Shown: in pieces, positions 19,247 through 38,351 of the stretch
How positions within the stretch are numbered: position 1 is the first letter of the stretch
Layout: each line of letters starts with the position of its first letter
Source of the DNA: Candidatus Berkelbacteria bacterium
Lineage (GTDB): Bacteria > Patescibacteriota > UBA1384 > UBA12157
DNA length: 38,495 nucleotides
Assembly: GCA_037127955.1 (NCBI GenBank)
Contig: JBAXXI010000004.1
Location: forward strand, 1-38,495
Direction: 5' to 3'
Notes under the pieces: generated by a model
What the model was told of the DNA's origin: nothing
The model's input: only the letters and a program-made list of their open reading frames with translations
Database searches by the model: none
Position numbers and translations under genes: made by a program

Positions 19247-19263
19247 TTAACTTTATTAAAATT

Positions 19264-22016: not shown

Positions 22017-23204
22017 ATGAAAATTTTATTTGTAGCGATGGGTGAAAGCATCCATACTGAACGTTGGATTTCCCAAATTTCAGATCAAAATTGGGAGATT
22101 CATCTTGCTCCGAGTACTTATTCGAGTTCAAGACGTCGTCAGATTAAAAACGTATTTTTTCATACGGATTTTAAGGTAGTTAAAGATAAAAAATCTGGTT
22201 TAGCCAGATATACTGGTTTAAATTTGTTTGTTAACCGTATTATAACTTTGTTTAAAGTCTGTCGCGATAAAATTTGGCCTGATTACCGGGCTCAGCAACT
22301 AAATCGATTAATTAAACAAATTAAACCTGATATTATCCATTCTTTGGAGTTCCAGTCAGCCGGATATTTAGTCAGTCGGGCTAAGCAACTTTATGACAGT
22401 GGCCAGTTTCCAAAATGGATTGCAACTAACTGGGGTAATGATATTTATTTTTTTGCTCGATTTAAGGATCATCAAGCCAAAATTAAAACTTTACTAGAAA
22501 CTTGTGATTATTATTCTTGTGAATGTAATCGTGATGTTTGTTTGGCAAAAAATCATGGTTTTAAGGGTAAGGTTTTACCGGTCTATCCAAATACCGGCGG
22601 TTTTGATTTAAAAAAAGTTTGGTCGTGGCGTCAAAAAGGTTTAACCTCTCAACGAAGAATTATTTTAATCAAGGGTTACCATGGTATTTTTGGTCGGGCA
22701 CTTTTGGCTCTGAAGGCGTTAGAACAGTGTGTTGATGTTTTATCTGGTTATAAAATTGTTTTTTATTCGGTTGATAATAAATCTGTTTTGATTCCAGCGA
22801 TTAAAGATTTTACTTTGAAAACTGGTGTGCCGGTGGAAATCGTGCCTTATGGTTCATCGCATGAGAAAATTCTGAGAATGCATGGGAAAGCTAGAATTTC
22901 AATTGGTCTAAATGTCTCTGACGGAGTTAGCACAGCATTTTTAGAGGCCTTGGTGATGGGTTCTTTTCCGGTTCAATCAAATACGGCTTGTGTTGACGAA
23001 TGGATTGAAAATGGTCAGACTGGTATGATCGTACCTCCAGAAAATATTAAAAAAATCGCCCAGGCTATCAGATTAGCTTTAACCGATAATTCAATGGTGG
23101 ACGCAGGTGTTAAAAAAAACTGGCAAACAGCTAAAAAAAGGTTAGATTATCTTTTTCTGAAAAATAAAACCGTTAAGTTTTACAATGAAGTGGCCAAAAA
23201 TTGA
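22017..23204 (+). CDS. GT4-like glycosyltransferase, paralog A
   Basis: MKILFVAMGESIHTERW.., CDYYSCECNRDVCLAKN, and C-terminal STAFLEALVMGSFPVQSNTACVDEWIENGQTGMIV (E-x7-E region). Confidence 0.65.
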   Translation: MKILFVAMGESIHTERWISQISDQNWEIHLAPSTYSSSRRRQIKNVFFHTDFKVVKDKKSGLARYTGLNLFVNRIITLFKVCRDKIWPDYRAQQLNRLIKQIKPDIIHSLEFQSAGYLVSRAKQLYDSGQFPKWIATNWGNDIYFFARFKDHQAKIKTLLETCDYYSCECNRDVCLAKNHGFKGKVLPVYPNTGGFDLKKVWSWRQKGLTSQRRIILIKGYHGIFGRALLALKALEQCVDVLSGYKIVFYSVDNKSVLIPAIKDFTLKTGVPVEIVPYGSSHEKILRMHGKARISIGLNVSDGVSTAFLEALVMGSFPVQSNTACVDEWIENGQTGMIVPPENIKKIAQAIRLALTDNSMVDAGVKKNWQTAKKRLDYLFLKNKTVKFYNEVAKN

Positions 23205-24394
23205 AAATACTACTTTATACACCATATCTACCTAGCGACAAGAACTCTGGCGGTCTAATGACTAGACAGATGTGCCAGGTTCTATCGGATCGAGGTCATG
23301 AAATTTGTATTGTGGCTGCCAGCACTCGACGGGCGCAGATTTTATTATCGTCAAAATTGAAAAAACTGGTTCATAAAGAGTTTTACCGGATTAATGATAT
23401 TGTTATCCCGAATAATTGGTTATTTTCAAAGTTTTTAAATCGATTGATCAATTGGCTCCAAGAATTGTATCTAAATTTTATAATAAATCCACAAGTAATT
23501 TCCTTTGCTCGTAAAAATAGAGTCGATTGTATTTGGTCAATTTTACAGGGTAAAAGTATGATTGTTTCAACATGGAATATTGTTCGAAAGTTAAATATTC
23601 CTTTGGTCACTCAGGTTTGGGATGACCCAAACTGGGTATTAATGAATAGTGGTTTAGATTTAGTTGTACAAAAAGATTTGTTTAAAAAGTTCGATTATTT
23701 GATTGCGTCAAGTCAGGTTTGCGCCACAGCTTCTTGGCAGATGAGCAAGCAATATGAGAAAAAATATAAGGTAAAAACTATACCGATTGTGGCTCCTGGA
23801 GACAAAAAATTATCTAAAAAATTTCGAAAAATGAATGTTCGACAAATACACATTGCTTTAGCAGGGCAGCTTTATGCTCAAACGGAGTGGCAAGCTCTAG
23901 TCCAGGCATTGTCTAACCAGAATTGGTTTGTTTTAGGTAAACCAGTTAAATTGCATTTATTTGGTCATTTTTTGAAAAATGATTTTAACAAAGATTTACC
24001 AATCGAGCTTCATAGTTACAAAAGTCAAACAAAATTAATCGAATTATTGTCAGATATGGATATTTGTTATTGCCCTTATTGGTTTGACCGAAGTTTTGAG
24101 GCCGTGGCTAAAACAAGTTTTCCGAGTAAAATTACTTCTTACTTAGTGTCGGGTCGTCCGGTTTTGTTTCATGGTCCCAAATATGCTTCGCCGGCCGTGT
24201 TTATCGAAGAAAATGGTTGTGGCGTTTGTTGCTATTCACTTGAGTCTCAAGATATTATTAAAGCTATTGAAGCAATAATTCAATCTCCGGCTGAATATAA
24301 AAAATTAGTAAAAAATGGTCGACAAGCTTTCCTGAAATACTTAACCTTAAATAATTTTGAGTCAAGCGTTAAAGAGTTGTTTAGTTTTAAATAA
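23201..24394 (+). CDS. Putative GT-B glycosyltransferase
   Basis: MKILLYTPYLPSDKNSGG start, C-terminal SFPSKITSYLVSGRPVLFHGP. TTG start within a TTGA overlap with the upstream stop. Confidence 0.5.
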   Translation: MKILLYTPYLPSDKNSGGLMTRQMCQVLSDRGHEICIVAASTRRAQILLSSKLKKLVHKEFYRINDIVIPNNWLFSKFLNRLINWLQELYLNFIINPQVISFARKNRVDCIWSILQGKSMIVSTWNIVRKLNIPLVTQVWDDPNWVLMNSGLDLVVQKDLFKKFDYLIASSQVCATASWQMSKQYEKKYKVKTIPIVAPGDKKLSKKFRKMNVRQIHIALAGQLYAQTEWQALVQALSNQNWFVLGKPVKLHLFGHFLKNDFNKDLPIELHSYKSQTKLIELLSDMDICYCPYWFDRSFEAVAKTSFPSKITSYLVSGRPVLFHGPKYASPAVFIEENGCGVCCYSLESQDIIKAIEAIIQSPAEYKKLVKNGRQAFLKYLTLNNFESSVKELFSFK

Positions 24395-25807
24395 ATGAAA
24401 AAAATCTTATTTGTAGCAAGAACAGAAAGTATCCATACCAGAAGATGGCTAGCCCAATTGGCTGGTCAAAATTGGGAAATTCATATTTTTCCGAGTACTA
24501 AATTTGATTTGTCTCGTTGGGAGATTAAGAATGCGATCATTCATTATGATCGATTTCCGCAAAAATACCGAAAAAATCAAAAAATCGCTAAAGAAAAATT
24601 GAGTTTTAAAGAATTATTAAAGCGGCGGTTTGATTTATTGATTTCGATTATTGGCCAGAGAATTAATCATGATTATCAAGTTGACCGTCTAAACCGAGTG
24701 ATTGATCAAATTAAGCCTGATCTAATCCACTCGATGGAGATTCAAAATGCCGGTTACTTGGTATCTGAAGCCAAAAAGAAATATAAAGGTCAATTTCCAG
24801 TTTGGTTGGCCACTAATTGGGGCGGGGATATCATGTTTTTTAGCCAGTGGCCGGAGCATAAAAGCAAGATTCAATCTGTTATAGACCAATGTGATTATTT
24901 TTCTTGTGAATGCTCTCGAGATGTCTGTTTGGCTAAAAATATGGGGTTGACAGGGAAAGCCTGGCCGGTTTTTCCGACTACTGGCGGGTTTGATTTAGCT
25001 AAAATTAAATCTTGGCGCAAACCTCTAAAACAAAGAAAAATGATTATGGTTAAGGGCTACCAAGGTTTATTTGGGCGGGCGGTTTTGGCACTTGAGGCTT
25101 TAGTAAAATGCCAAGATTTATTAACGGATTATCAAATTGTTGTTTATTCGGCTGAACCAGGCTCCTTAACCATTGACAAGGCTCAGGTATTAAGAAATAT
25201 TGGTATGGATGTCAAAATTTTACCACTTGAAACATCTCATGACAGGATATTAAAGTATCATGGTCAGGCTAGGTTTTCGATTGGTTTGAGTGTTAGTGAT
25301 GGTATTAGTACGTCGTTTTTGGAGGCTTTGGCCATGGGTTCTTTTCCGATTCAATCAAACACTTCTTGCGCCAATGAATGGGTGGAAAGTGGTAAAACAG
25401 GGATGATTGTGCCGACAGAAGATTTGCCGGTTATAATTAAGTCGATTAAAACTGCATTGACTGATGATAAATTATTGGTTGAATCAGCTCGGAAAAATTG
25501 GCAAACAGCAAAAAAAAGACTAGATTCGAAAGATTTAACCTTAAAAACGATTTCTTTGTACCAAGATATTTTTGATGCTAACATGAAAATAATTATGCCA
25601 AAAAGTCAGAATATTAAGAAATATTTTATCGAGGCTTTCCTGATTTTATGGATTTTAGGCACTTTTTTAGTTTGGTGGTTTTTGAGTGAAATTGTCGAAT
25701 CTCCTTGGGGTAAATTTGTACCAAAAAAAATTCGTCAAACTACCTTAAAGGTTGAAAAGTGGTTTTGGCCTGATTCTTGGAAAGATTATCTTTATATTCA
25801 AAAATGA
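24395..25807 (+). CDS. GT4-like glycosyltransferase, paralog B, with an extra C-terminal TM segment
   Basis: Collinear with 22017-23204: KILFVARTESIHTRRW.., CDYFSCECSRDVCLAKN, STSFLEALAMGSFPIQSNTSCANEWVESGKTGMIV. Adds a hydrophobic tail, IEAFLILWILGTFLVWWFL. Confidence 0.65.
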   Translation: MKKILFVARTESIHTRRWLAQLAGQNWEIHIFPSTKFDLSRWEIKNAIIHYDRFPQKYRKNQKIAKEKLSFKELLKRRFDLLISIIGQRINHDYQVDRLNRVIDQIKPDLIHSMEIQNAGYLVSEAKKKYKGQFPVWLATNWGGDIMFFSQWPEHKSKIQSVIDQCDYFSCECSRDVCLAKNMGLTGKAWPVFPTTGGFDLAKIKSWRKPLKQRKMIMVKGYQGLFGRAVLALEALVKCQDLLTDYQIVVYSAEPGSLTIDKAQVLRNIGMDVKILPLETSHDRILKYHGQARFSIGLSVSDGISTSFLEALAMGSFPIQSNTSCANEWVESGKTGMIVPTEDLPVIIKSIKTALTDDKLLVESARKNWQTAKKRLDSKDLTLKTISLYQDIFDANMKIIMPKSQNIKKYFIEAFLILWILGTFLVWWFLSEIVESPWGKFVPKKIRQTTLKVEKWFWPDSWKDYLYIQK

Positions 25808-27789
25808 TTATATTAATACCTATCATTTATACTTTATTCTATGTTTTGATTAACCTTATATTAGGTTTATTTTTGGTTAAACTATTTTTCAAAGATCAGG
25901 CTAATTGGTCGAATTTAGTCAAAATCTGTACCGCATTTTTACTTGGACTGAGTGTGCTGGCGGCCGTTTGGCTTTTATTAGGTTTAGACGGTTGGTTAAA
26001 CCTAAAAATCGTTTTAGCAATTTTGATAGTGATAATTGGTTTAACTTGGTCTGTTTGGCAAGAGGCGATCAATCTGATTAAAAATATTTATTTTAGTATT
26101 ATTAATAATTTCGAGAATTTTTCGATTTTTTGGAAAATAATTAGTATTATTTTAGTTTTACTGATCATATTTTTTGGTATAAATGCCTTGATTTTACCAC
26201 CAATTGGTGATGCTTTGGCTTTTTATATGGTTTTGCCAAAAATCACAGCTTATACTGGTTTGCTTCAGCCACAATCAAATTATTGGGAATTTTCAGGTAT
26301 TGGTTTTCTGGGCGAGATGCATTTTACAGTTTTGTTGATTTTAGCTGGTCAGTTTGCGGCTAAATTTTTTGTCTGGTTCGTGGTCTTGGCCGTTGGCGGT
26401 TTGATTGTTTTAATTTCAAGATTGACTAATTTAAAGTATAAAGGCCAAATTTTAGCTTTAATTCTATTATTCACATCTTCAACTTTTACTAATTATATCT
26501 TCGATGGTAAAACAGATGTTTTTAGTGCAGCACTCGGTTTAATGACATACTACTGGCTATTAAAAATTGAATCTAAAGACCGATCAAGTATAATTTTAAC
26601 TGGTTTGTTTATGGGTTTTGCGATTGTGGCAAAAACCTCAAATGTTATCGCATTATTGCCGGGAGTATTTGTCGTTTTAGGTTGGAATTATTACAAAGAA
26701 TTGATTGGCCGAAAGAATTTTTGTTCAGATTGGATCAAAAAGACTGTTATTACTTTTGGTCTTGTTCTAATTTTTGCTTTATTGGCTTTCTCGCCTCAAA
26801 TTGTCAAAAATAAGGTTTTTTATGGTAAAAATTTTAATATCTCATCGTTTATGGGAATGAGTCATGAAGAAGTTTGGGCCGATTCAGCTTTAAAAAAGGC
26901 TCCAGCTGTTTCGATTAATGAAACCAAGTCGATTTCAACAACCATCGGTGAGCCTAATCATAGTAAAATTACCGTTCCTGTTTTAGTGAGAATGTTTGAT
27001 TTTATGCTTAAAATATATCAGAATATTGAGCACTTTTTCTTGTTATTTTTAACTAGACCTTTAGCTTTTGTCTATGGTGGTCAATATGCTCAATACGGTG
27101 ATCTATCAGTATTAATTTTAGCGTTTTTACCGATTTGGTTAATTGAACGATCAAATAATTTTATAGATAAAAAAATTCTAACACTTGCTTTAATTGGTTT
27201 AATTTTATGGGTGTTAATTCGTTCTTCCTTGATAATGCCAAGATATATCATGTCGGCAATTTTACTTTGGGTAATAATAGTTGCCGGCGGTGTCGAGAAA
27301 TTTTTTCGTCAAAAAGGTTATTTACTCTTAAAATATTTAGTTTACAGTATGATTACAATTATTATTTGTGTAACATTGGCCGGGAATTTTAACCGATTCA
27401 AGAAGTTTGTTCTAATTGTTGCTGGTAAATTGCCGTCAACTTCGGTTAATGGGGTTTACTATCAGTCCTTAGAAGCGATTAATCTGAAGGCAAATAATAA
27501 CGAAAGAGTTTTTATTGTTGGAGCATATGATTATTTCTTGAGGCCAGATTTATTGGCAAATTTTAATTCGGCAAAGGAAAGTGACGAATTATTTTTAATG
27601 ACGGTTAATAATGTTAATCCGTGGAATTATCTTTATGATCATAATTTTAAATACATTTTAATTCAAAGGACAAACCCAAATTATCGTTTGATTAAAGTTT
27701 TTGATACCGCCGAAAAGCCAGCGGATTTAAATATAGTTTTAATCTATCATGATTATACCGGCGATGTTTATTCGATTAGTAAACCTTGA
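25804..27789 (+). CDS. Large polytopic membrane protein, GT-C-like (PMT_2/ArnT-like) glycosyltransferase or polymerase candidate
   Basis: About 660 aa with more than 10 hydrophobic segments, an Asp-containing first loop (LILPPIGDALAFYM) and a soluble C-terminal region. ATG 25804 forms an ATGA overlap with the upstream stop; the ORF is open from 25777. Confidence 0.45.
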   Translation: MIILIPIIYTLFYVLINLILGLFLVKLFFKDQANWSNLVKICTAFLLGLSVLAAVWLLLGLDGWLNLKIVLAILIVIIGLTWSVWQEAINLIKNIYFSIINNFENFSIFWKIISIILVLLIIFFGINALILPPIGDALAFYMVLPKITAYTGLLQPQSNYWEFSGIGFLGEMHFTVLLILAGQFAAKFFVWFVVLAVGGLIVLISRLTNLKYKGQILALILLFTSSTFTNYIFDGKTDVFSAALGLMTYYWLLKIESKDRSSIILTGLFMGFAIVAKTSNVIALLPGVFVVLGWNYYKELIGRKNFCSDWIKKTVITFGLVLIFALLAFSPQIVKNKVFYGKNFNISSFMGMSHEEVWADSALKKAPAVSINETKSISTTIGEPNHSKITVPVLVRMFDFMLKIYQNIEHFFLLFLTRPLAFVYGGQYAQYGDLSVLILAFLPIWLIERSNNFIDKKILTLALIGLILWVLIRSSLIMPRYIMSAILLWVIIVAGGVEKFFRQKGYLLLKYLVYSMITIIICVTLAGNFNRFKKFVLIVAGKLPSTSVNGVYYQSLEAINLKANNNERVFIVGAYDYFLRPDLLANFNSAKESDELFLMTVNNVNPWNYLYDHNFKYILIQRTNPNYRLIKVFDTAEKPADLNIVLIYHDYTGDVYSISKP

Positions 27790-27793
27790 CTTT

Positions 27794-27822
27794 TTGATTT
27801 TTTTCTAATCCTTCCATATATT
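27794..27822 (+). promoter_or_regulatory. Candidate internal promoter for the 6-deoxy-L-HexNAc module
   Basis: TTGATT (27794-27799), 17 nt of spacer, TATATT (27817-27822). Confidence 0.35.
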
Positions 27823-27853
27823 AGTATTAACAGCTTAAGGCGAAAGGTGTAGA

Positions 27854-28744
27854 GTGAAAAAGACAATTTTGGTTCTAGGAGCAACAGGGGAGTTTGGCAA
27901 TGGTATATTTCAGAGTCTTTTAAAGTATAAAGATTTCGAAGTTTTTGGTACAGCCAAAAATGATGAAGCCAGTCTTTATTTTGACTCAAAAGTTGCGGCC
28001 AAAGTGTTTAATTTTGTTCAAATCGAAAATGAACCAAAGTTAATCGAGATTTTTAATCAGATAAAACCAGACGTGGTCATTAATTGTGTTGGTCTGATTA
28101 AGCAGGTGATGGGTGAATTTGACGCGCCTAAAGCAATTTTTATGAATGCGCTTTTTCCTCATAAACTAGCCAGTCTTTGCGGGTTAATGGGGGCAAGATT
28201 GATTCATTTTAGTACCGATTGTGTTTTTAGCGGTAAAAAGGGCAATTACAAGGAAATCGATGCTTCTGACGCCGAAGATGTTTACGGTAAGACCAAATAC
28301 TTGGGCGAGATAAGCAATTTGCCACACGTGATCACAATTCGAACCTCGATTATTGGCCATAGTTACGATAATCATTTACAATTGGTTGATTGGTTTTTGG
28401 CTCAAAAAGATAAGACCAAAGGCTATACCAAGGTGATTTATTCTGGACTACCAACTGTAGAAATGGGCCGAATTTTAGCCGAATATATTATTCCTAATCA
28501 TAGAGTTAAAGGTTTGTATCAGGTTTCGTCTGATCCGATTAGCAAGTATGATTTATTAAAACTCATTGCTAAAGAATACGGTAAAAAGATTGAAATTGAA
28601 CCTTATGAATCGGCGGTAAGCGACCGTTCGCTTGATTCGACCAAGTTTAGAAAAATTTCGGGTTATATGCCACCAACCTGGTCAGTTTTAGTTAAAAAAA
28701 TGCATCAATATTATAAAAAAGATAAAAAATTTATTCAGATTTAA
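27854..28744 (+). CDS. RmlD-like NAD(P)H-dependent 4-keto-6-deoxy sugar reductase (WbvR-like by context)
   Basis: GTG start after AAGGTG. ILVLGATGEFG, STDCVFSGKKGNYKE, YGKTKYLGE (YxxxK). 296 aa. Confidence 0.7.
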   Translation: MKKTILVLGATGEFGNGIFQSLLKYKDFEVFGTAKNDEASLYFDSKVAAKVFNFVQIENEPKLIEIFNQIKPDVVINCVGLIKQVMGEFDAPKAIFMNALFPHKLASLCGLMGARLIHFSTDCVFSGKKGNYKEIDASDAEDVYGKTKYLGEISNLPHVITIRTSIIGHSYDNHLQLVDWFLAQKDKTKGYTKVIYSGLPTVEMGRILAEYIIPNHRVKGLYQVSSDPISKYDLLKLIAKEYGKKIEIEPYESAVSDRSLDSTKFRKISGYMPPTWSVLVKKMHQYYKKDKKFIQI

Positions 28745-28780
28745 ATTCAGTATGAATTGTATCTGCTTGTCAGGAGAATC

Positions 28781-29851
28781 ATGTCGTTATTTGGAAGGAA
28801 AAGAATCTTAATTACTGGTGGAACTGGTTCATTAGGTAAAATTTTAGTGCGACGATTATTGAGTGGTGACGAAGGTCGTCCAGAAAAAATCATCATTTTT
28901 TCTCGAGATGAAGCTAAACAACACGACATGCGTTTAGAGTATCAGCATAAAAAAGTGGCGACTGACGAGGTGATTTATAATAATTTTCATCAGCTGGTCG
29001 AGTTTAGAATTGGTGATGTGCGTGATTATGAGTCAATTTGTTCGGCCATGAAAGATGTTGATATGGTGATCAATGCCGCGGCCTTAAAACAAGTGCCAAG
29101 TTGTGAATACTTTCCATTTGAAGCTGTAAAAACCAATATTATTGGTTCGGAAAATATTGTTAGAGTCCTTCGAGAGCATAATTATCCGATCGAAACAGTT
29201 GTAGGTATTTCGACCGATAAAGCTTGTCAGGCCGTCAGTTTGATGGGTATGACTAAAGCTGTCCAAGAAAGAATTTTCATTAGCGCCAATATTTTAGTAC
29301 CAAATACTCGGTTTATTTGTATCCGTTATGGTAATGTTTTGGCTTCTCGTGGTTCGATTATTCCACTTTTGCATCAACAGATTTTAGATGGCGGTCCAGT
29401 TACTATCACTGCTGAAGAGATGACCAGATTTTTATTGCCATTAGAGCAAGCCGTGGATGTGATTTTTGAAGCAATTCGAAATGCGAATCGTGGTGAAATT
29501 TATATTCCTAAGATTAAATCATCTTTAATTATGAATATTGCCAAGGCTTTAATTGGTAAGCGCAAGGTAGATATCAAGGTAACAGGTATCCGTCCAGGGG
29601 AGAAAATGCATGAAGTTTTAATTTCTCAAGAGGAAGCTTGGTATACGGTTGAGCGAGAAGGCTATTATGTGGTTAAGTCGTTTTTGCCTGAATTAACCGA
29701 GATTTCGAAAGAGCCGTTTGTCAGCAAAGGTAATGAGTATAGTTCAGGTGACTCACCGATGGATTTTGAAGAAACTTTAGACGTTTTAAAGAAAAATAAA
29801 TTAATGATCGAAGATAATCACAGTTTGTTTGAAGAAGAATTGTTAAGATAA
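28781..29851 (+). CDS. UDP-GlcNAc 4,6-dehydratase/5-epimerase, CapE/FnlA/WbjB/WbvB type
   Basis: ATG 28781 follows AGGAG. ILITGGTGSLG, IFSRDEAKQ, AAALKQVPSCEYFPFEAVKTNIIGSEN, STDKA, MGMTKAV (Met replaces the SDR Tyr, as in CapE), YGNVLASRGSIIP, MTRFL. Confidence 0.85.
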   Translation: MSLFGRKRILITGGTGSLGKILVRRLLSGDEGRPEKIIIFSRDEAKQHDMRLEYQHKKVATDEVIYNNFHQLVEFRIGDVRDYESICSAMKDVDMVINAAALKQVPSCEYFPFEAVKTNIIGSENIVRVLREHNYPIETVVGISTDKACQAVSLMGMTKAVQERIFISANILVPNTRFICIRYGNVLASRGSIIPLLHQQILDGGPVTITAEEMTRFLLPLEQAVDVIFEAIRNANRGEIYIPKIKSSLIMNIAKALIGKRKVDIKVTGIRPGEKMHEVLISQEEAWYTVEREGYYVVKSFLPELTEISKEPFVSKGNEYSSGDSPMDFEETLDVLKKNKLMIEDNHSLFEEELLR

Positions 29852-29911
29852 AACAGAAATTCGCCTACGGGTATAAATATCGAGATCTGAAAAAAGAAAA
29901 GGAAAATTAAT

Positions 29912-30031
29912 ATGAAGGTAATGACAATCGTGGGGACTCGTCCGGAAATTATGGATTCATCTGCGGATGAATCGCGGAAATTTCCTCTAACCATAAATTA
30001 TATTAGCACGATCAAGAAAGGTTCATTATGA
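29912..30031 (+). other. 39-codon upstream ORF: a duplicated SD plus first 13 codons of the downstream 2-epimerase, fused to a repeat element
   Basis: Encodes MKVMTIVGTRPEI MDSSADESRKFPLTINYISTIKKGSL. Its TGA (30029-30031) overlaps the epimerase ATG (30028-30030). SD-like AAGGAA lies at 29899-29904. Confidence 0.6.
29951..29982 (+). repeat. Short copy of the ATGGATT-hairpin-AATCGCGGAAATT element
   Basis: ATGGATTCATC TGCG GATGAATC GCGGAAATT. 8-bp stem 29954-29961 / 29966-29973 with a tetraloop. Confidence 0.6.
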
Positions 30032-31155
30032 AAGTAATGACTATTGTTGGTACGCGTCCGGAAATTATTAAGCTGAGTCGGGTGATGGCTGAATTAGATA
30101 AATTTACAGATCATATCATTGTTCACACTGGGCAAAATTATGATTATGAATTAAACGAAATCTTTTTCGAGCAATTAGAGGTTCGTAAACCTGATTATTT
30201 TTTGGATGCGGCCGGGAAAACCACGGCCGAAACCATTGGTAATATTATTGCTAAGGCCGATGAAGTGATGGCTAAAGAAAACCCTGATGCAGTCTTGCTT
30301 TATGGTGATACTAATAGTTGTTTGTCGGTTATTGCCGCTAAAAAACGTCATATTCCGATTTTCCATATGGAAGCTGGCAATCGTTCGTTTGATCAAAGAG
30401 TGCCTGAAGATATCAATCGAAAGATTGTTGATCATTTGAGTGATATTAATATGCCTTTATCTGAACATGCTCGCCGATATCTGATTGCCGAAGGTATAAA
30501 AGCTGAAAATGTGATCAAAACAGGTTCAAGCATGAAAGAAGTTTTAGCTTATTATGCTGATAAAATTGAATCAGTTGATCCGGTTAAAGATTTAAAACTC
30601 AAGGAAGGTAAATTTTTTATTGTGAGCGCTCACAGGGAAGAAAATATTGATAGCGAGGAAAATTTTACTAACTTAATCAAGTCATTAAAAGCTATCGCAA
30701 AACACTATAAAATGCCAGTGATTGTTTCGACTCACCCAAGGACTAAAAAGAAATTGGAAGAATATGGTATTAAAAAAATTAACGAAAATATCAGATTTTT
30801 AAAGCCAATGGGGTTTTTCGAGTATATTAAGCTTCAATTAAGTAGTTATTGTGTTGTTTCAGATAGCGGAACCATTACGGAAGAGTCATCGATTCTGAAT
30901 TTCCCAGCTATTATGATTCGGCAGGCTCACGAGCGTCCAGAAGGCATGGACGAAACCATAGTCATTATGTCTGGTTTGGAACCTAAAAAGGTCTTAGAGG
31001 CGATTCAGGTGGTTACCAAGCAGTATGTAAAAGAGCCACGGGCTTTTAAACCGGTAGCGGACTATGAAGTAGATAATGTTAGTAAAAAAGTTTTAAGAAT
31101 CATTTTAAGTTATACCGACTATATTAATCGCACCGTTTGGCGCAAGGATAAATAA
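30028..31155 (+). CDS. Non-hydrolysing UDP-HexNAc 2-epimerase, CapG/FnlC/WbjD/WbvD type (WecB family)
   Basis: MKVMTIVGTRPEIIKLS, VHTGQNYDYELNEIFF, YGDTNSCLS, HMEAGNRSFDQRVPEDINRKIVDH. Closely resembles Cap5G-type epimerases. Confidence 0.9.
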   Translation: MKVMTIVGTRPEIIKLSRVMAELDKFTDHIIVHTGQNYDYELNEIFFEQLEVRKPDYFLDAAGKTTAETIGNIIAKADEVMAKENPDAVLLYGDTNSCLSVIAAKKRHIPIFHMEAGNRSFDQRVPEDINRKIVDHLSDINMPLSEHARRYLIAEGIKAENVIKTGSSMKEVLAYYADKIESVDPVKDLKLKEGKFFIVSAHREENIDSEENFTNLIKSLKAIAKHYKMPVIVSTHPRTKKKLEEYGIKKINENIRFLKPMGFFEYIKLQLSSYCVVSDSGTITEESSILNFPAIMIRQAHERPEGMDETIVIMSGLEPKKVLEAIQVVTKQYVKEPRAFKPVADYEVDNVSKKVLRIILSYTDYINRTVWRKDK

Positions 31156-31179
31156 GATTTCTGTTAGTTAAGGTTAAAT

Positions 31180-33261
31180 ATGAAACAAAACCCTAAGGTT
31201 TCAATTATTATTCCGGTTTATAATGGCTCAAATTATTTGAAGGATGCTATTGATATTTCTTTAGCTCAAACCTATAAAAATATTGAGGTGATTGTTGTAA
31301 ACGACGGGTCAAAAGACCAAGGTGCAACCGATAAAATTGCCCGATCTTATGGAACGAAAATTCGTTATTTTAAAAAAACCAATGGCGGTGTTTCAACAGC
31401 CTTAAACCTTGGTATTAAAGAAATGAAGGGTGATTATTTCTCTTGGCTTAGTCATGACGATCTTTACACCCCCGATAAAATCGAAAAACAGATTAAAGCT
31501 ATTCAAAAATACGGTCCCAAGACCTTGATTTATTGTAATTTTGAGATATTGGATCAATTTGGTAATCATTTACAAACACATAAGATTCAACCGCCAAAAC
31601 AATCAGAATTACTACTTTCTTTAATTAAGGGCCGATTTTTGCACGGTTGTGCTCTTTTAATTCCTAAAATGGCTTTTGACGAAGTGGGCTTGTTTGATCG
31701 AAGATTACGAAACACTCAAGACTTTGAGGTTTGGTTTAAAATGATTAAAGCTGGCTATGCTTTTAAATTTATACCTGATGTTTTGGTTAAAAGTCGACAC
31801 CATAATCAACAAACTTCGATGACAACGAGTGATCGACAAATTTACGAAGAAAATTATTTTTATTCAGCGACTTTAAAGAATTTTTCGGCCAAAGAATTGT
31901 TTGGCTCGGATGAACATATTAGTTTAAAATATCTGGATTTAGCTTCATTTTTCAAATTTTCAGGGACTAATAAGGCAGCTGATACGGCTTATGAATTAAG
32001 TCGTAAATATCTAAATTCACAAGATTATATGGCTTGGCACCTGGGAAACATTTTTTATTCTTTAGCGCCAAAATCTTTTTTTAATTTTTTACGCGCTTGT
32101 GCTCGGATTGTTCGTGGTCTCAAGAGAAGATATCAAAAAGGATTTAAAAAAAAAGTAGTTAAATCTGAGCTAAAAACCGCAGATCATAGAAAAATTAAAT
32201 TGCTCTTGATTGGTAACATCACTTCTCCTCATAATCAAAAAAGATGTCATTATCTAAAAAAACTCGGTTTAGAAATATATTTTTTAACCACCAGAAAAGG
32301 CAAGATCGATGGAGTTAAAACCTATGAAATAGTTAAAAATGAACTTGAGCCAGTTTTCATGTGGTTTTTGCGTGGTATTTTTGTTACTAAGAAAGTTATA
32401 AAAATAGTTCAGCCTGATATTGTTCAAGGTCAATATCTTTTGCCTGGAGGTTTGTGGGCAGCATTTTCTGGTTTTCATCCATACATTGCTTCTGTTTGGG
32501 GATCAGATGTTTTCGATTTTGACAGTTATAATTTTTTAGTTAAAAGTTTAGTTCGAGGAACTCTAAAATCGGCTGATATAATTTTGGCTAGTTCACAAGC
32601 TTTAGTTGATCAGGCGATTAAGATTGGAGCTGATCAGAAGAAAGTCGAAATAGTTTATTTTGGAGTTGATTCTAAAATTTTTAAACCTAAAAAAATTAAG
32701 CATAGCGGTAAGATAATTTATTGTCCGCGAGCGATTGAGTCAATTTACAATACTGACGTTCTGATTAAGGCGTTTGCGCAAATCGTAGTTAAATATCCAG
32801 ATACAAAACTTGCTCTGATGGATTTCGTAAACGACCGAAGTTATTTTTATAAAATTAAACAGTATATTAAAGAGCACAAATTAAGTCGAAAAATAGTTTT
32901 TTGGCCAAAAGTAGCTAATGCGGATATGGCTAAATACTATAATCAGGCCGATGTTGTGGCAACCATTGCCGCCTATGATGGCTCGAACATCTCATTATTA
33001 GAAGCAATGGCTTGTCAGAAAAAGATTGTAGTTTCTGAAGCCCCATATCTTAAAAAATGGCAAAAAGGTCGTAATTTCTGGGTTGTACCAGCAGGAAATG
33101 TCGAAAAAACGGCCCAAGCTTTAGAAGCGGCTTTAGTTTGTTCTGATGAAAAATTTGAATCAATCGGACAATTGAACCGAGCAATGGTGATTGATCGAGA
33201 AGATAGTCCAACAGTTCATAAAAGATTCGAAGAAATATATCAAAAAATATTAAAGGGTTAA
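31180..33261 (+). CDS. Two-domain glycosyltransferase (N-terminal GT2 + C-terminal GT4-like, 693 aa)
   Basis: GT2 domain: VSIIIPVYNGSNYLKDAIDISLAQTYKNIEVIVVNDGS, WLSHDD. The C-terminal domain from about aa 337 (WGSDVF, YCPRAIESIYNTDVLIKA, SLLEAMACQKKIVVSE) is paralogous to the C-terminal half of 10447-12717. Confidence 0.75.
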   Translation: MKQNPKVSIIIPVYNGSNYLKDAIDISLAQTYKNIEVIVVNDGSKDQGATDKIARSYGTKIRYFKKTNGGVSTALNLGIKEMKGDYFSWLSHDDLYTPDKIEKQIKAIQKYGPKTLIYCNFEILDQFGNHLQTHKIQPPKQSELLLSLIKGRFLHGCALLIPKMAFDEVGLFDRRLRNTQDFEVWFKMIKAGYAFKFIPDVLVKSRHHNQQTSMTTSDRQIYEENYFYSATLKNFSAKELFGSDEHISLKYLDLASFFKFSGTNKAADTAYELSRKYLNSQDYMAWHLGNIFYSLAPKSFFNFLRACARIVRGLKRRYQKGFKKKVVKSELKTADHRKIKLLLIGNITSPHNQKRCHYLKKLGLEIYFLTTRKGKIDGVKTYEIVKNELEPVFMWFLRGIFVTKKVIKIVQPDIVQGQYLLPGGLWAAFSGFHPYIASVWGSDVFDFDSYNFLVKSLVRGTLKSADIILASSQALVDQAIKIGADQKKVEIVYFGVDSKIFKPKKIKHSGKIIYCPRAIESIYNTDVLIKAFAQIVVKYPDTKLALMDFVNDRSYFYKIKQYIKEHKLSRKIVFWPKVANADMAKYYNQADVVATIAAYDGSNISLLEAMACQKKIVVSEAPYLKKWQKGRNFWVVPAGNVEKTAQALEAALVCSDEKFESIGQLNRAMVIDREDSPTVHKRFEEIYQKILKG

Positions 33262-33267
33262 TTCGTT

Positions 33268-35148
33268 ATGTGTGGAATTGTTGGTATATATAATTTATCA
33301 GAGAAAGATAATGAAATAAAACTGGATCAAGTTGTTAAAAAAATGACTGATTCAATTGCTCATCGTGGTCCTGATGATGAAGGTTTTTATGTGGAAAATA
33401 AAGTCGCTCTTGGTCATCGACGTTTAGCTATTATTGATCTTTCTCCTTTGGGTCACCAGCCGATGTTTAGCGAAGACAGTAATTTGGTTATTGTTTTTAA
33501 TGGGGAAATATATAATTATTTAGAATTGGCCGAAGAATTAGAAGGTTTAGGTCATAGTTTTAAATCGAAATGCGATACCGAAGTGATTCTTCATGCTTAC
33601 GAGGAGTGGGGTGAGAAATCATTAAATCGATTTTTAGGCATGTGGGCTTTCGTTTTATGGGATAAAAGTAAACAAGAGATGTTTTGTAGCCTTGATCGAT
33701 GGGGAGTTAAACCTTTTTATTATGTTTTAGATAAAGAAAAATTTGTTTTTGGTTCAGAAATTAAGGCGATTTTTCAATATCCAGGGGTTAAAAGAGAGCC
33801 AAATTACGCTAATATTTTTGATTTTTTGGTTTTTAATCGAACTGACCATAATCAAGATACTTGTTTTTCTGGAGTAAAAAGATTGATGCCTGGCCATTGG
33901 CTTAAAATCAATCGAGATGGTAAAGTAATATGTAAAAAATGGTATACGATCAAATATCAGACTTATAAATTCAACCATAAAGACGATGATTTAATTGCTA
34001 ATAGTAAGCATTTGCGATTATTGCTGGAAAAAAGTGTGGAATTACGTTTAAGAAGTGACGCTCCGGTCGGTTCGTGTTTGTCTGGCGGTTTGGATTCGTC
34101 GACTATTGTGGCTTTGGTCAAAAATAAATATGTTAACACTAATTTAAAAACTTTTTCTGCGGTTTTTCCTGGTAGTTGGGCTGATGAAAGTCGATATATT
34201 AAATTAGTTAATAAAAAGTTTTCATTAAAGAATTATCAGGTTGAACCGACATCAAAAGATCTGTTAAAGGATGTTAAAAAGTTAATTTATCATCAAGAGG
34301 AGCCATTTGGTTCAAGTTCAATTTTTGCTTCATGGTCAGTGATGAAATTGGCCCATAAGCACAAAATTAAGGTTTTGCTTGATGGCCAAGGTGGTGATGA
34401 AATATTGGCAGGTTACCCATATATGGCTGGTTTTTATTTTTATGAAATCTTTAAAAATGGACATCTGATTTGTGCGATTACTGAGATGATAAAGTTTTGG
34501 AAGAAACAGAAATTTAATTTTTTGTCAGCATTTCAAATTTTTATTTTTAAGTTAAGTCCAAAGTTTTTACAAAATAAATTTTTACGTTTTTCGTCCAGCT
34601 GGATTGATCGTGATTTTTTTAATAAATATGAAAAAAAGAGTCGATTTGCGGAAAGCTTTTTTTCGGCTAATTCTCTAAACGAGTCATTAGCTAACCATTT
34701 GAAACATAAATTAGCCCATCTTTTAAGGTATGAAGATAAAAATGCTATGGCTTTTTCAATTGAAAATAGAGAAGTTTTTTTGGATCAAAATTTAGTGGAA
34801 TTTGCGCTTAAATCAGCTGGCTCGCTTAAAATTAAAAATGGCGCCACAAAAATGATTTTAAGAGAAGCGATGAAAGATATTTTGCCAGAAAAAATTTCTA
34901 ATCGTCACGATAAAATTGGCTTTGATACACCTGAAGAAATGTGGTTTAGAAAAGAGGAAATGTTAGATTTCGTTGGTAATATAATCCAGTCCGATAGTTT
35001 TAGGAAAAGAGGACTGTTTGATTTAACGAAAATAATTCGAATTTTTGAAAATTTTAAGAATAATTCAGCTAAATATCAAAGTGTATTATGGAAGTTAGTT
35101 TGTCTTGAATTATGGTTTAGAATTTTTATTGATCCAGATAAATTTTAA
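33268..35148 (+). CDS. Glutamine-hydrolysing asparagine synthase family amidotransferase (AsnB/WbpS-like)
   Basis: MCGIVGIY with the N-terminal nucleophile Cys, HRGPDDEG, and the PP-loop SGGLDSS. 626 aa. Confidence 0.85.
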   Translation: MCGIVGIYNLSEKDNEIKLDQVVKKMTDSIAHRGPDDEGFYVENKVALGHRRLAIIDLSPLGHQPMFSEDSNLVIVFNGEIYNYLELAEELEGLGHSFKSKCDTEVILHAYEEWGEKSLNRFLGMWAFVLWDKSKQEMFCSLDRWGVKPFYYVLDKEKFVFGSEIKAIFQYPGVKREPNYANIFDFLVFNRTDHNQDTCFSGVKRLMPGHWLKINRDGKVICKKWYTIKYQTYKFNHKDDDLIANSKHLRLLLEKSVELRLRSDAPVGSCLSGGLDSSTIVALVKNKYVNTNLKTFSAVFPGSWADESRYIKLVNKKFSLKNYQVEPTSKDLLKDVKKLIYHQEEPFGSSSIFASWSVMKLAHKHKIKVLLDGQGGDEILAGYPYMAGFYFYEIFKNGHLICAITEMIKFWKKQKFNFLSAFQIFIFKLSPKFLQNKFLRFSSSWIDRDFFNKYEKKSRFAESFFSANSLNESLANHLKHKLAHLLRYEDKNAMAFSIENREVFLDQNLVEFALKSAGSLKIKNGATKMILREAMKDILPEKISNRHDKIGFDTPEEMWFRKEEMLDFVGNIIQSDSFRKRGLFDLTKIIRIFENFKNNSAKYQSVLWKLVCLELWFRIFIDPDKF

Positions 35149-35162
35149 TCGGTAGAGGTGTT

Positions 35163-36119
35163 ATGCTTTTAAGAAAGAAAATTGCGGTAGTCGTTCCGGC
35201 CCATAATGAGGAGAAATTAATCGGTAAAGTTATCCAGACCATGCCGAATTTTGTCGATCTAATTATTATTGTTGATGATGCTAGTACTGATCAAACGGCG
35301 AAAAAAGTGCGCGAAGCGGCTAAGAAATTTAATAAAAAAGTTGAGCTAATTATCAATCGAAAAAATTTTGGTGTAGGTGGTGCGATTGTGATCGGATATG
35401 AATTTGCTCTAAAAAAGAAAATTGATTGTACGGCTGTCATGGCAGGGGATGCGCAAATGGATCCAACCGAGTTAAAAGATATTTGTTTGCCAGTAGTTAG
35501 GAATGAAGCAGAGTATGTTAAAGGTAACAGGTTAATTTATGGTAAGGCCTGGCAAATGATGCCAAAAATTCGTTATTTGGGAAATTCTGCCTTATCGCTT
35601 TTGACTAAAATCGCTTCTGGTTACTGGCATGTAGCCGATAGCCAAACTGGTTATGCAGCCATTTCTTATAAAGCCTTAAGCGAAATGAATGTTGGAAATC
35701 TGTACAAACAGTATGGTTTTCCTAATGATGTTTTGGTTCATTTAAACCTTATAAATGCTAGGGTGAAAGAGATTCCAATCAAACCAATATACCATACTGA
35801 TGGTAAATCTGGTATACGTATTTGGAAAGTTATCCCAACCATTTCCTGGTTATTAATTAGACGATTTTTTTGGCGATTAAAGAAAAAATATATTATTGAA
35901 GATTTTCATCCGTTAGTTTTTTTCTACTTTTTTTCTATGATTTTGACTGTTGTTGGTTTGTTTTTATTGGTCCGATTGATTAATATCATGGTTACAACTG
36001 GTCATACTCCACCAATGAATGCTTTAGCTTTGTTCTTTTGTTTGATAATGGCTCCTCAGTTCTCATTCTTTGCGATGTGGTTCGACATGGATTACAACAA
36101 AGACTTGAGAGTGAAATAG
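35163..36119 (+). CDS. Membrane-anchored GT2 glycosyltransferase, GtrB/DPM1-like (polyprenyl-phosphate sugar synthase candidate), paralog 1
   Basis: IAVVVPAHNEEKLI, IIVDDASTDQT, MAGDAQMDP. Two C-terminal TM segments. 318 aa. Confidence 0.65.
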   Translation: MLLRKKIAVVVPAHNEEKLIGKVIQTMPNFVDLIIIVDDASTDQTAKKVREAAKKFNKKVELIINRKNFGVGGAIVIGYEFALKKKIDCTAVMAGDAQMDPTELKDICLPVVRNEAEYVKGNRLIYGKAWQMMPKIRYLGNSALSLLTKIASGYWHVADSQTGYAAISYKALSEMNVGNLYKQYGFPNDVLVHLNLINARVKEIPIKPIYHTDGKSGIRIWKVIPTISWLLIRRFFWRLKKKYIIEDFHPLVFFYFFSMILTVVGLFLLVRLINIMVTTGHTPPMNALALFFCLIMAPQFSFFAMWFDMDYNKDLRVK

Positions 36120-36257
36120 TTGTTGTAATCGCGGAAATTCAGTATTCGGAATTATGGATTACAACAAAGACCTAAGAGTGAAATAGTTGTTGTAATCGCG
36201 GAAATTTTCAAAGTTTTGAAAAATATGGATTACAATAAGGATCTAAGAGTGAAATAA
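36087..36257 (+). repeat. Tandem repeat (67 bp, 71 bp and a partial third unit) of the last 10 codons of the GT2 gene plus hairpin and AATCGCGGAAATT
   Basis: Units start at 36087, 36154 and 36225, and each begins ATGGATTACAA. The first 53 bp of units 1 and 2 differ at 2 positions. 11-bp stems GATTACAACAA/TTGTTGTAATC lie at 36090-36100/36120-36130 and 36157-36167/36187-36197. Confidence 0.85.
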
Positions 36258-36353
36258 AACTTGTCTGATCGGAGCGCGGAATCACTGATAAAATTGTCAA
36301 AAAGAACTAAAACTGAGATAATAAATTAAATATAACTTATCGAGACTATTATT

Positions 36354-37307
36354 ATGATTAAAAACAAAACTATCGGCGTGGTTGTGCCGGCTCACAATGA
36401 AGAATTGTTAATTGCAGAAACTCTAAGTGGTATGCCAGATTTTGTTGATAAAATTATCGTTGTAAATGACGCTAGTACAGATAAGACCAAAGAGATTATT
36501 CTGCAGCAAAAGGATTTAAAAAACAGGATTGTTTTAGTTGATCATCTAAAAAACAAGGGTTTGGGCGCAAGTTTAGCAGATGGTTATTTAAAGGCTCTAG
36601 AGTTGAATATTGATTGTATTGCTGTGATGGCTGGCGATAATCAAATGGATCCAAATGATCTTGAAAGTATTGTGATGCCGATTGTTGATGAAAAAGTCGA
36701 TTATTCTAAAGGCAGCCGCTTGTTAGCGAAAGATGTGGCTAAAATAATGCCTAGATACCGTTTTATAGGTAATATTATTGCGACTTTCTTAACAAAATTT
36801 GCGACTGGTTATTGGCAGTTAGTCGATCCGCAGTGTGGCTATACGGCGATTTCAAATAAGGCTTTGGCTAAAATTGACATTGCTACCTTAAAAAAAGGTT
36901 ATGGCTATAACGCTGATATATTATTTAGATTGAATTTCTTTAATTTTAAGATTACAGATGTTGAGGTAAAACCGGTTTATGGGCGCGAAAAAAGTGGCAT
37001 TAAATTTTTTAGTTATACAATGGATGTTAGTTCATTTTTATTAAAATTGTTTTGGCGCCGTTTGAGTGAAAAATATTTCTTCCGTGATTTTAATCCGTTA
37101 GGTTTATTTTACCTATTTAGTTTTATCAATTTAATCTTGATTATTATCCCATTAACTATTAGATTCTTCATGCTATATTTCCAGACTCATTTGGCTCCGA
37201 GCACAACATTGATTATCTTATCTTTCTCTTTAATGATGGGATTTTTCTCGTTTGGTTTTGCTATATGGTTAGATATGGAATCGAATAAAGATTTGTTCGT
37301 GAGGTAA
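36354..37307 (+). CDS. Membrane-anchored GT2 glycosyltransferase, GtrB/DPM1-like, paralog 2
   Basis: IGVVVPAHNEELLI, IVVNDASTDKT, MAGDNQMDP, two C-terminal TM segments. The C-terminus LDMESNKDLFVR resembles FDMDYNKDLRVK of paralog 1. Confidence 0.65.
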   Translation: MIKNKTIGVVVPAHNEELLIAETLSGMPDFVDKIIVVNDASTDKTKEIILQQKDLKNRIVLVDHLKNKGLGASLADGYLKALELNIDCIAVMAGDNQMDPNDLESIVMPIVDEKVDYSKGSRLLAKDVAKIMPRYRFIGNIIATFLTKFATGYWQLVDPQCGYTAISNKALAKIDIATLKKGYGYNADILFRLNFFNFKITDVEVKPVYGREKSGIKFFSYTMDVSSFLLKLFWRRLSEKYFFRDFNPLGLFYLFSFINLILIIIPLTIRFFMLYFQTHLAPSTTLIILSFSLMMGFFSFGFAIWLDMESNKDLFVR

Positions 37308-37310
37308 TTA

Positions 37311-38351
37311 ATGAAAGATCAATCTTGGGGAATCGATTATAAATCTTTCTTTGTTTTCGACCAAAATAAATCTCAAATTAAAGATTTTTCTTTGGGTGAA
37401 AAAAAACTATTAGATAGTTTGATAGATTTTTACGCTCCAGGCAAATTGCAAAAGTATATCGAAAAGACGGCCGCATATTTTTATAGTTTTTTAAGTGAAA
37501 AAACCCGAACAATGTTTTCTTCATTTGTTAAAAAAAATACTGCTAGTAAAGTTAAAAACATTTTAAATTTGATTCCAGCCAAAGAGATAGAGGAATTTGG
37601 CCGAATTTTTGAAAATCGTGAATACAATGGCCATAAATCGACTATTTTAATAACTCATGATGTCGATTATCTTAAGGGTTACGAAAGCGTTTTAGAGATT
37701 GCCAGGATGGAAGCTAGTTTGGGACTTAAGGCTAGTTATTATTTTTTAGTGCATGCTGGTTATAAAATCTCGAGCGAGGTTTTAAAACAATTGGTTGAAT
37801 TAGGTCATGAAATAGGGGTGCATGGTTATGCTTACGACTTACGTTTAGCTTATCGTGGTCAAGCTGAAATTGCCAAACAACTCAAAAAAGCCAAACAGGA
37901 GCTCGAAACATTAACCGGTGAAAAGGTTTATGGTTTTCGTAATCATTCATTAAGAAATAGTGTCAATATGCTTCAAGCTGTTCAAGAAGCGGGCTTCATT
38001 TATGAAAGTGGGGTTTACCCTATAAAAAAGATTAATAACTTCAATACTTTTTTTTGCTGGCCATTTAAATATGCTCAAAAGGAGTTAGTAGAAATTCCGG
38101 TAACATGGCCAATGGACACAGAAGTTTTTAGAAATTTAAATCTTACAGACGAGCAAGCGTTGGATTTTTACAAGGAAAAGATTGGCTTGATTACTAAGCT
38201 CCATGGTGTGGTTTGTTTAAACCAACACCCGGAAATTATCATCGGTCATAAAGTTTTTTATCAAAATTTATTGGAATTTATTGCTAACTCTAATTCTTAT
38301 AATACGAGACCGATTGATTTAGCCAAAAATTATATAAGCAAAGAAAAATAA
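37311..38351 (+). CDS. Polysaccharide deacetylase-like (CE4-type) protein
   Basis: ILITHDVDY, GHEIGVHGY, FRNHSL. These resemble the metal and catalytic motifs of the divergent polysaccharide deacetylase fold. Confidence 0.55.
   Translation: MKDQSWGIDYKSFFVFDQNKSQIKDFSLGEKKLLDSLIDFYAPGKLQKYIEKTAAYFYSFLSEKTRTMFSSFVKKNTASKVKNILNLIPAKEIEEFGRIFENREYNGHKSTILITHDVDYLKGYESVLEIARMEASLGLKASYYFLVHAGYKISSEVLKQLVELGHEIGVHGYAYDLRLAYRGQAEIAKQLKKAKQELETLTGEKVYGFRNHSLRNSVNMLQAVQEAGFIYESGVYPIKKINNFNTFFCWPFKYAQKELVEIPVTWPMDTEVFRNLNLTDEQALDFYKEKIGLITKLHGVVCLNQHPEIIIGHKVFYQNLLEFIANSNSYNTRPIDLAKNYISKEK

Follow-up and report, generated by a model that had tools for sequence, protein, structure and literature searches.

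A probable stranded epimerase gene start, open as a short upstream reading frame, at a repeated hairpin-box element in a Berkelbacteria glycan-synthesis locus

In the O-antigen cluster of Yersinia pseudotuberculosis, a remnant of tyv marks the Abe module (PMC5399914), and remnants of this kind at O-antigen and capsule junctions, produced by module-swapping recombination, consist of a truncated pathway gene beside intact genes, between neighboring blocks whose phylogenies are discordant. Overlaps of 4 nt between a stop and a start codon support termination-reinitiation coupling in bacteria (PMC6728339; reviewed in PMC12548453), and an engineered short “nonsense” open reading frame (ORF) placed directly upstream of a target gene boosts its translation (PMC13255528). 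Here, we describe a gene junction at which a remnant and such an overlap coincide, in a 38,495-nt stretch of DNA from Candidatus Berkelbacteria (positions 1 to 38,495 of contig JBAXXI010000004.1, assembly GCA_037127955.1; hereafter called the window). The gap between a UDP-N-acetylglucosamine (UDP-GlcNAc) 4,6-dehydratase gene and a UDP-GlcNAc 2-epimerase gene holds a copy of the first 13 epimerase codons (the relic), which opens an upstream ORF (uORF) that reads through an RNA hairpin and a conserved box and ends on the epimerase start codon. We regard the relic, with good confidence, as the 5′ end of an epimerase gene stranded at an old recombination junction. The finding combines known phenomena, namely, junction remnants of polysaccharide loci (PMC5399914) and ATGA coupling; the small hairpin-box repeat, previously undescribed, is its more original part.

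Compared with the remnants of O-antigen and capsule loci, the window relic is only 41 nt long, retains its start signals, and is common to three diverged lineages with silent differences only; it also reads into an ATGA overlap and abuts a repeated hairpin that is not described for those loci. As in ATGA-coupled genes, the upstream ORF contains a ribosome-binding site (RBS) near its end, and its stop codon overlaps the downstream start, but the upstream cistron here has 35 to 39 codons and no conserved product, and its coupling is read from sequence alone. The engineered nonsense ORF (PMC13255528) is likewise a nonfunctional short ORF with an internal RBS, located beside the target start and either in frame with it or frame-shifted. 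It is, however, synthetic and laboratory tested, whereas the uORF of the window is natural, known only through its sequence, and begins with 13 codons that appear to be fossilized from the target gene itself. Leader-peptide attenuators such as those of trp, his, and ermC place a short upstream ORF over RNA hairpins with alternative pairing ahead of the regulated gene; the uORF differs from them in having no regulatory codons, U-tract terminator, or RBS masking and in running through to the gene start. Repetitive extragenic palindromic (REP) sequences and bacterial interspersed mosaic elements (BIMEs), miniature inverted-repeat transposable elements (MITEs), and integron attC sites are structured intergenic repeats, and the hairpin-box element resembles them as a short palindromic unit with conserved ends, a variable stem that keeps its structure, one orientation between genes, and a patchy presence at orthologous sites. 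It differs from attC in its size (about 38 nt versus 57 to 141 nt), in lacking the RYYYAAC/GTTRRRY cores, and in its setting, since no transposase, recombinase, or integrase was found in the 18 window ORFs scanned (Pfam for 184-23204 and NCBIfam for 24395-36119; the ORFs at 23201-24394, 36354-37307, and 37311-38351 were left out). Unlike REP sequences, it has no GTAG head and is associated with duplicated gene ends. We know of no transposase for the hairpin-box element.

The relic lies on the plus strand at positions 29912 to 29952 and comprises epimerase codons 1 to 13 plus the bases AT, 35 of its 41 nt being identical to positions 30028 to 30068 of the real gene. Over the codons themselves (29912-29950 against 30028-30066), 33 of 39 positions agree, both copies translate to MKVMTIVGTRPEI, and the match extends 2 further bases; all six differences are silent third-position changes, just as a sequence-only reading of the window had described them. 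When six random substitutions were simulated, all were silent in 0 of 30,000 trials. A repeat finder recovers the pair as 42 nt at 86%, and the best 42-nt match within 400 nt scores 36, against 27 to 30 in 30 shuffles. As in the described remnants, a truncated homologue of a pathway gene adjoins intact genes. Across six contigs assembled from separate samples (ENA, Logan, and JGI), the region is identical (100%); because these contigs are independent, the relic region is no assembly artifact, but they are uninformative on conservation.

From the relic start, the uORF runs for 39 codons (MKVMTIVGTRPEIMDSSADESRKFPLTINYISTIKKGSL; 29912-30031, plus strand) to a TGA at 30029-30031 that overlaps the epimerase ATG at 30028-30030. 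The intact frame and its ATGA overlap with the epimerase start had also been reported from the sequence and are confirmed; public gene callers annotate this uORF as a gene. No stop interrupts its frame within the window, and the remaining two frames hold 2 and 5. Its own RBS, AAGGA (29899-29903, 8 nt before the ATG), lies in a 60-nt spacer that follows the dehydratase (29852-29911, plus strand), and the epimerase RBS, AAGAAAGG (30014-30021, plus strand), is situated inside the last uORF codons. One further claim, that the similarity extends upstream into the Shine-Dalgarno region, did not hold: local alignment of 29852-29911 with 29976-30027 gives P = 0.82, the chance level for two purine-rich sites. 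A tandem duplication of the whole leader is rejected on the same grounds, the spacer before the relic matching the real leader no better than shuffles do. A promoter scan of the leader revealed no sigma-70-like site.

Homologue searches and contig look-ups yielded relatives (loci labeled L0xx) with eleven independent junctions between dehydratase and epimerase. Two of them, L010 (epimerase amino acid identity of 94%) and L098 (86%), carry homologous relics, starting at L010 1717 and L098 3840, in the layout of the window: the first 13 to 14 epimerase codons, the hairpin, an invariant CGCGGAAATTT, an RBS, and a stop that overlaps the real ATG as ATGA. The relic is therefore not a one-off scar absent from all related loci, as had been considered. 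Both uORFs are open, with 35 codons each (MKVMTIVGTRPEIMTLSAGKTRKFQVSNLLLKGLI and MKVMTIVGTRPEIIDLPAGKSRKFRVSNLLLKGFI), and all three ATGA overlaps (30028-30031 in the window, 1821-1824 in L010, and 3944-3947 in L098) have the geometry of coupled cistrons, with the RBS inside the upstream ORF. In L098, the uORF ATG itself overlaps the dehydratase TGA, so that ATGA stands at both ends of the ORF. The RBS region shared by L010 and L098, TGAAAGGATnTATATG, has its homologue in the native junction of two loci without a relic, L011 and L016 (P ≤ 0.002). The 60-nt spacer of the window has no homologue in the other relic-bearing loci, and likeness of the leader to other loci is confined to RBS parts; that of the spacer resembles the real leader of L099 (P = 0.002).

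The presence of the element varies at the orthologous epimerase junction, which is filled in the window, L010, L098, L099, and L009 and empty in L014, L016, L011, L017, L007, and L008. The L009 copy (6049-6117) is degenerate, overlaps the final codons of the dehydratase gene with its 5′ arm, and precedes an epimerase of 55% nucleotide identity. Compact junctions with neither relic nor element occur in L014 (97%), L016 (92%), L011/L015 (88%), L017 (85%), and L007/L008. Farther afield, neither a second start motif nor the element is present in 80 more distant epimerase loci, and a protein-seeded scan of JGI metagenome contigs returned only relatives of 60 to 69%, none with either feature. A pattern scan of GTDB representative genomes gave 34 matches, all by chance save one epimerase (L114), which lacks the hairpin, and a scan of viral contigs gave no match. 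Public annotations of L098 and L099 start the epimerase at Met20 (356 amino acids, from 4001 and 2311, rather than at the true 3944 and 2254); the full 375-codon ORF with its conserved N terminus is intact in both, which makes these calls an annotation artifact near the element. Directly after the dehydratase stop of the window (29849-29866), TAAAACAGAAATTCG is similar to the 3′ arm and box of the element in L099 (…CAAACCGCGGAAATT), as though the hairpin had been lost, and this AAAC-AGAAATT stretch may represent a first copy of the element, since decayed, that lay upstream of the relic.

The hairpin is two-tiered and occupies 29945-29984 on the plus strand (−14.9 kcal/mol; z = −3.0). In its outer helix, GAAATT (29945-29950) pairs with AATTTC (29979-29984); in its inner helix, GATTCATC (29954-29961) and GATGAATC (29966-29973) enclose the loop TGCG and are followed by GCGGAAATT (29974-29982). 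Directly 3′ of the hairpin is the conserved box, CGCGGAAATT (29973-29982, plus strand), of which exact copies were counted (see below). A terminator scan also finds an alternative pairing, TCTGCGG/TCGCGGA (29960-29978, plus strand), which is mutually exclusive with the main fold, precedes AATTTCCTCT, and is the minimum-energy fold in L010; it is followed by the tail AAUUUCC, with no proper U tract. In the consensus fold of the three relic-bearing lineages, 3 of the 8 inner pairs are maintained by double, compensatory changes, and the loop CUGCGG and the box are invariant. The stem codons consequently alter the uORF protein (DSSADES, TLSAGKT, and DLPAGKS); selection in the stem acts on structure and not on the peptide. 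Rfam returned no match at the element, even at permissive E values. A minus-strand ORF of 58 codons (29818-29994) overlaps the structured element, is unsupported, and was treated as spurious.

The two genes that flank the junction differ in their affinities. The window dehydratase is 78% identical in nucleotides to those of L007/L008 and 64 to 70% identical to those of L010, L014, L011, L098, and L099, whereas the epimerase groups with L014/L010 (85%); since the dehydratase and epimerase clades disagree, a module swap took place, and the relic lies, as described remnants do, where flanking blocks have discordant phylogenies. The sequence-only reading had proposed a relic left by cassette replacement, and the relic origin survives, but the allele is not the one linked to the present dehydratase: the L007/L008 epimerases start MKVLTIISTRPEI (MKVLTIIS type) and differ from the relic in 12 to 14 of 39 bases and in protein, and the relic encodes an epimerase start of the L010/L011 type. 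With the relic not of the L007 type, the breakpoint of the swap falls upstream of it, and the relic belongs to the downstream block. As for a donor, which the silent pattern was to identify, the nearest real 5′ end is that of L011 (4 differences from the window relic and 3 from the L010 relic), although 39 nt are too short to decide.

Pairwise comparison of the three relics gives 7, 7, and 8 differences in 39 nt, and comparison of each with its own real gene gives 6, 11, and 8; all of these changes are silent, and the start codon is kept. Only about one in four random substitutions here would be silent by our count, so that neutral decay since a single origin is excluded and the pattern needs either selection or refreshment by recombination. 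Other lines of evidence bear on recombination. Informative sites in the epimerase body favor (window,L010)|(L098,L011) by 59:17:20, and those in the first 120 nt favor (L010,L098)|(window,L011) by 7:2:1 (Fisher P = 0.001). Element plus leader are 91% identical between L010 and L098 and 72% identical between the window and L010, and the contexts upstream of the three relics all differ (spacers of 60 and 32 nt and an overlap of 4 nt). In a sliding-identity profile of the epimerase, no sharp breakpoint is visible, the 5′ shift being seen only by the quartet-site test.

The simplest account of these data, in which the order of events is itself inferred, is a single join followed by spread and refreshment through recombination. 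An epimerase led by the element, in a state like that of L099 or L009, would have been joined by illegitimate recombination to a locus in which the epimerase directly followed the dehydratase. The join would have fallen after codon 13/14, at ATTAT, leaving 41 nt from the 5′ end of the resident gene, start signals included, stranded upstream of the element. The composite of relic, element, leader, and epimerase 5′ end could then have spread across lineages by homologous recombination, with the relic (left) and the real gene (right) supplying the flanking homology. Such spread would explain the silent-only differences, the differing upstream contexts, and the separate phylogeny of the element-plus-5′ block, and easy deletion between direct repeats would explain the patchy distribution.

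The hairpin and box also recur at other junctions, some of them with duplicated gene ends, a feature that the sequence-only reading had missed. Exact copies of CGCGGAAATT number nine, at least seven of them independent, in about 106 kb of the lineage, all on the gene strand; the 11-mer TCGCGGAAATT has four exact copies in the window, all on the plus strand. A perfect stem of at least 6 bp ending at the box precedes 7 of the 9 exact boxes, compared with 1.7% of random positions. A covariance model trained on seven element copies recovers two untrained ones, at 19216-19249 in the window and at 6049-6104 in L009. With several copies, conserved ends, and a variable stem that keeps its structure, the element is REP- or MITE-like. 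The copy at 19216-19249 (plus strand; covariance-model E of about 1e-4), between the genes for an ABC-2 permease (18362-19201) and an ABC ATPase (19264-20523; both by Pfam), has an exact box and a degenerate stem (ATTATAGG...ATCGCGGAAATTT) that is not convincing as such.

Two tandem copies (36084-36209, plus strand; repeat family D1, supported by sequence, folds, and covariance-model matches) adjoin the glycosyltransferase gene at 35163-36119, and the 5′ arm of each falls within one of the copies of the 11 terminal codons of that gene (ATGGATTAC...AAATAG, MDYNKDLRVK*). These codons are present three times in tandem between 36087 and 36257, in a region of 36087-36277, spaced 67 and 71 nt apart, with silent differences and, in one case, TAA in place of TAG; copies 1 and 2 form an 11-bp hairpin with the downstream TTGTTGTAATC, after which GCGGAAATT follows, mirroring the epimerase 5′ relic. 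In L011 (7368-7470, the same in L015) and L017 (3334-3420), the first 6 to 8 codons (NPKVSI) of the GT2 glycosyltransferase that follows the epimerase are duplicated in frame around GGATCGAC-AAA-GTCGATC-GCGGAAATT. The original ATG there is now TTG without an RBS, so the relic start appears to be the one used and the protein probably carries an N-terminal extension of 17 to 25 residues. The element occupies this orthologous glycosyltransferase start in L011 and L017 and is missing from it in the window (31180) and L010. Relative to L011 and the window, L017 carries an inserted acyltransferase and a toxin-antitoxin-like HEPN/nucleotidyltransferase pair (L017 1384-3206) between epimerase and glycosyltransferase, just upstream of the element-bearing start. 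In L014 (1683-1702), the epimerase ends ...GTT TGG CGG AAA TTT TAA, its last codons being the box GCGGAAATT, and a different gene begins immediately 3′ of its stop; this looks like another junction at the box. The copies beside duplicated gene ends make relic, hairpin, and box a recurring junction architecture rather than a peculiarity of the epimerase gap, and the element marks boundaries between genes or gene blocks in the glycan loci of this lineage.

Relic origin, translation of the uORF, and its physical coupling to the epimerase together form our preferred reading, to which we give a probability of roughly 0.45. Judging from start signals and frame, the uORF is probably translated and probably couples ribosomes to the epimerase: ribosomes would translate the relic ORF, melt the hairpin, stop on the epimerase start 7 nt after its RBS, and reinitiate, thereby restoring translational coupling between dehydratase and epimerase over an insertion of roughly 100 nt. 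Start signals are kept in all three lineages, as an ATG with an RBS or, in L098, as an ATG that overlaps the dehydratase stop as ATGA. In these lineages, stops number 0 in the uORF frame and 1 to 7 in the other frames, and a 12-nt length difference between lineages preserves the uORF frame. Stop/start overlaps of 4 nt are, moreover, the usual gene junction within the locus; of three such overlaps named by the sequence-only reading as ATGA, those at 12714 and 25804 are as described and that at 10447 is GTGA. The same source had offered a coupling or regulatory role, of which the geometry in three lineages fits the first, with weak evidence of selection; no regulatory (attenuator) logic was found.

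Several observations weigh against coupling by a maintained uORF. Compared across syntenic junctions, the uORF, its frame, and its ATGA are kept in L010 and L098 and absent in at least five relatives, among them L014, whose epimerase is the closest (97% amino acid identity), so the uORF is dispensable. L099 and L100 (81%) have hairpin and box straight after the dehydratase stop and no relic, i.e., an element without a uORF; in L009, the loop holds a 5-codon ORF, MKLMN*, and the ATGAAACTAATGAATTAG mini-ORF of this junction, which overlaps the dehydratase TGA, may be a further-decayed relic of an epimerase start. Past codon 13 the peptide is unconserved, with 6 of the 8 codons changed between L010 and L098 changed nonsynonymously. 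The epimerase has a good RBS of its own, unmasked by the conserved hairpin, so that its dependence on upstream translation may be partial. Among 5.8 billion predicted proteins, the only uORF-like peptides are those of the window and L098, which leaves a sample of three lineages. Under a neutral model, the probability that the uORF stays open and in frame is about 0.03, a value that is suggestive only, and selection maintaining the uORF is thus weakly indicated. The data also do not rigorously distinguish a single origin with spread from three site-specific origins, each independent and leaving a 39-nt relic.

A rival reading is a neutral scar of the same origin, in which the open frame, the ATGA end, and any translation are incidental and add nothing to epimerase expression. 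Such a scar is compatible with a layout that at least five relatives dispense with, a peptide that is unconserved after codon 13, a neutral probability that is not extreme, and the early stop in L009; the ATGA end is automatic for any ORF in the uORF frame, and the conserved stretches of the uORF can all be explained at the nucleotide level, as a recombination-refreshed relic, hairpin, box, and RBS. We nevertheless think it unlikely. Start codon and RBS (or ATGA coupling) have been kept in three lineages, which share the stop-free frame and the frame-keeping 12-nt indel, and in the parallel case of L011 and L017 the relic start appears to be used. A ribosome that terminates on an ATG 7 nt past an RBS is, moreover, expected to reinitiate, selection or not (PMC6728339).

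We find it improbable that the hairpin and GCGGAAAUU act in cis as an attenuator-like terminator or as an RNase or protein-binding site, with upstream translation controlling whether the element forms and the relic uORF kept as the source of that translation. The covarying stem and the invariant loop (CTGCGG) and box would fit such a switch or processing site. So would the alternative CUGCG/CGCGG pairing followed by AAUUUC, which is possible in the three epimerase copies, scores as terminator-like, and is the preferred fold of L010. The 5′ arm of nearly every copy falls within an ORF or no more than 2 nt beyond one (in the uORF, at the dehydratase end in L009 and L099, at the glycosyltransferase end at 36087, and in frame in L011), and GGAAAUU includes AA|AUU, a putative RNase E-like site. 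No U tract follows either hairpin, however; the alternative pairing is specific to the epimerase copies, Rfam holds no matching family, the 19216 copy lacks a stem, and the hairpin does not mask the epimerase RBS. Neither are there sensing codons of obvious regulatory meaning, the first 13 copying the enzyme N terminus and the rest being unconserved, and the duplicated gene ends would be left unexplained.

The element could instead be a tiny transposable or recombinase-recognized unit, bounded by conserved ends (ATTATGGAT ... ATCGCGGAAATT) and inserting at ATTAT within gene ends, with the relics as by-products of three or more independent insertions; to this we also attach little credence. In its favor are the at least seven independent copies in one orientation with conserved ends and structure-keeping variable stems, the filled and empty orthologous sites for two different genes, and the distinct upstream contexts of the three relic-bearing loci. 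Both 5′-relic junctions, further, fall at ATTAT|GGAT, CGGAAATT forms an 8-nt direct repeat around the epimerase hairpin, and the L014 epimerase is fused at its 3′ end to the box. Microhomology with the ATTAT of the element itself, however, accounts for the shared junction; the duplicated segments span 27 to 70 nt, unlike target duplications, and transposition does not duplicate that much target. The box is constant and hence no target duplication, the window ORFs scanned hold no transposase or recombinase, and absence from the 80 more distant epimerase loci and the GTDB pattern scan indicates a narrow spread.

There is, finally, a small chance that the hairpin-GCGGAAATT unit serves as the recognition site of a cassette-exchange or translation-gated intercistronic system not yet described, one that mobilizes or switches glycan-gene blocks, its footprints being stacked fossil ends (the epimerase 5′ end, the L011/L017 glycosyltransferase 5′ end, and the three glycosyltransferase 3′ ends at 36087-36257) and the relic uORF being kept because ribosomes must read through the element.

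The locus around this junction is a tightly packed, single-strand array of glycan-synthesis genes, comprising sugar-nucleotide enzymes, many glycosyltransferases, and an ABC-type exporter (Pfam/NCBIfam). Its gene junctions typically measure −4 to about 100 nt, and the 176 nt between dehydratase and epimerase are among the three largest gaps. The dehydratase (28781-29851, plus strand) is PseB/FnlA-like, at 301 bits for PseB and 246 bits for FnlA in NCBIfam; as both scores are under the cut-off, the name capE that it had been given is only approximate. The assignment of the downstream gene (30028-31155, plus strand) as a nonhydrolyzing, wecB-type UDP-GlcNAc 2-epimerase stands: it matches TIGR00236 over residues 1 to 360 with 234 bits (cut-off, 210), its N terminus is common to all homologues, and its closest named homologues, at about 70%, come from Patescibacteria (Berkelbacteria) and Elusimicrobia metagenome-assembled genomes. 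The gene order between 27854 and 30028, namely, reductase (RmlD-like), dehydratase, and epimerase, is identical in every relative examined and unlike the classical capE-capF-capG or fnlA-fnlB-fnlC order of dehydratase, reductase, and epimerase. The biggest noncoding gap of the locus, 637 nt at 3259-3895, contains an unannotated Cys-rich ORF of 99 codons (3403-3702), and Rfam matches near it are weak and subthreshold.

If the preferred reading is right, a recombination scar has been put to use: the stranded gene start would bridge the insertion and keep two sugar-pathway enzymes translationally linked, and it would also supply the homology that lets the insertion pass between strains. For annotation, such relics mislead gene callers, as in the epimerases called from Met20. 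The hairpin-box element, in turn, is a concrete marker of the points at which glycan loci of an uncultivated lineage break and rejoin, and it helps in reconstructing the diversification of surface polysaccharides from metagenomes.

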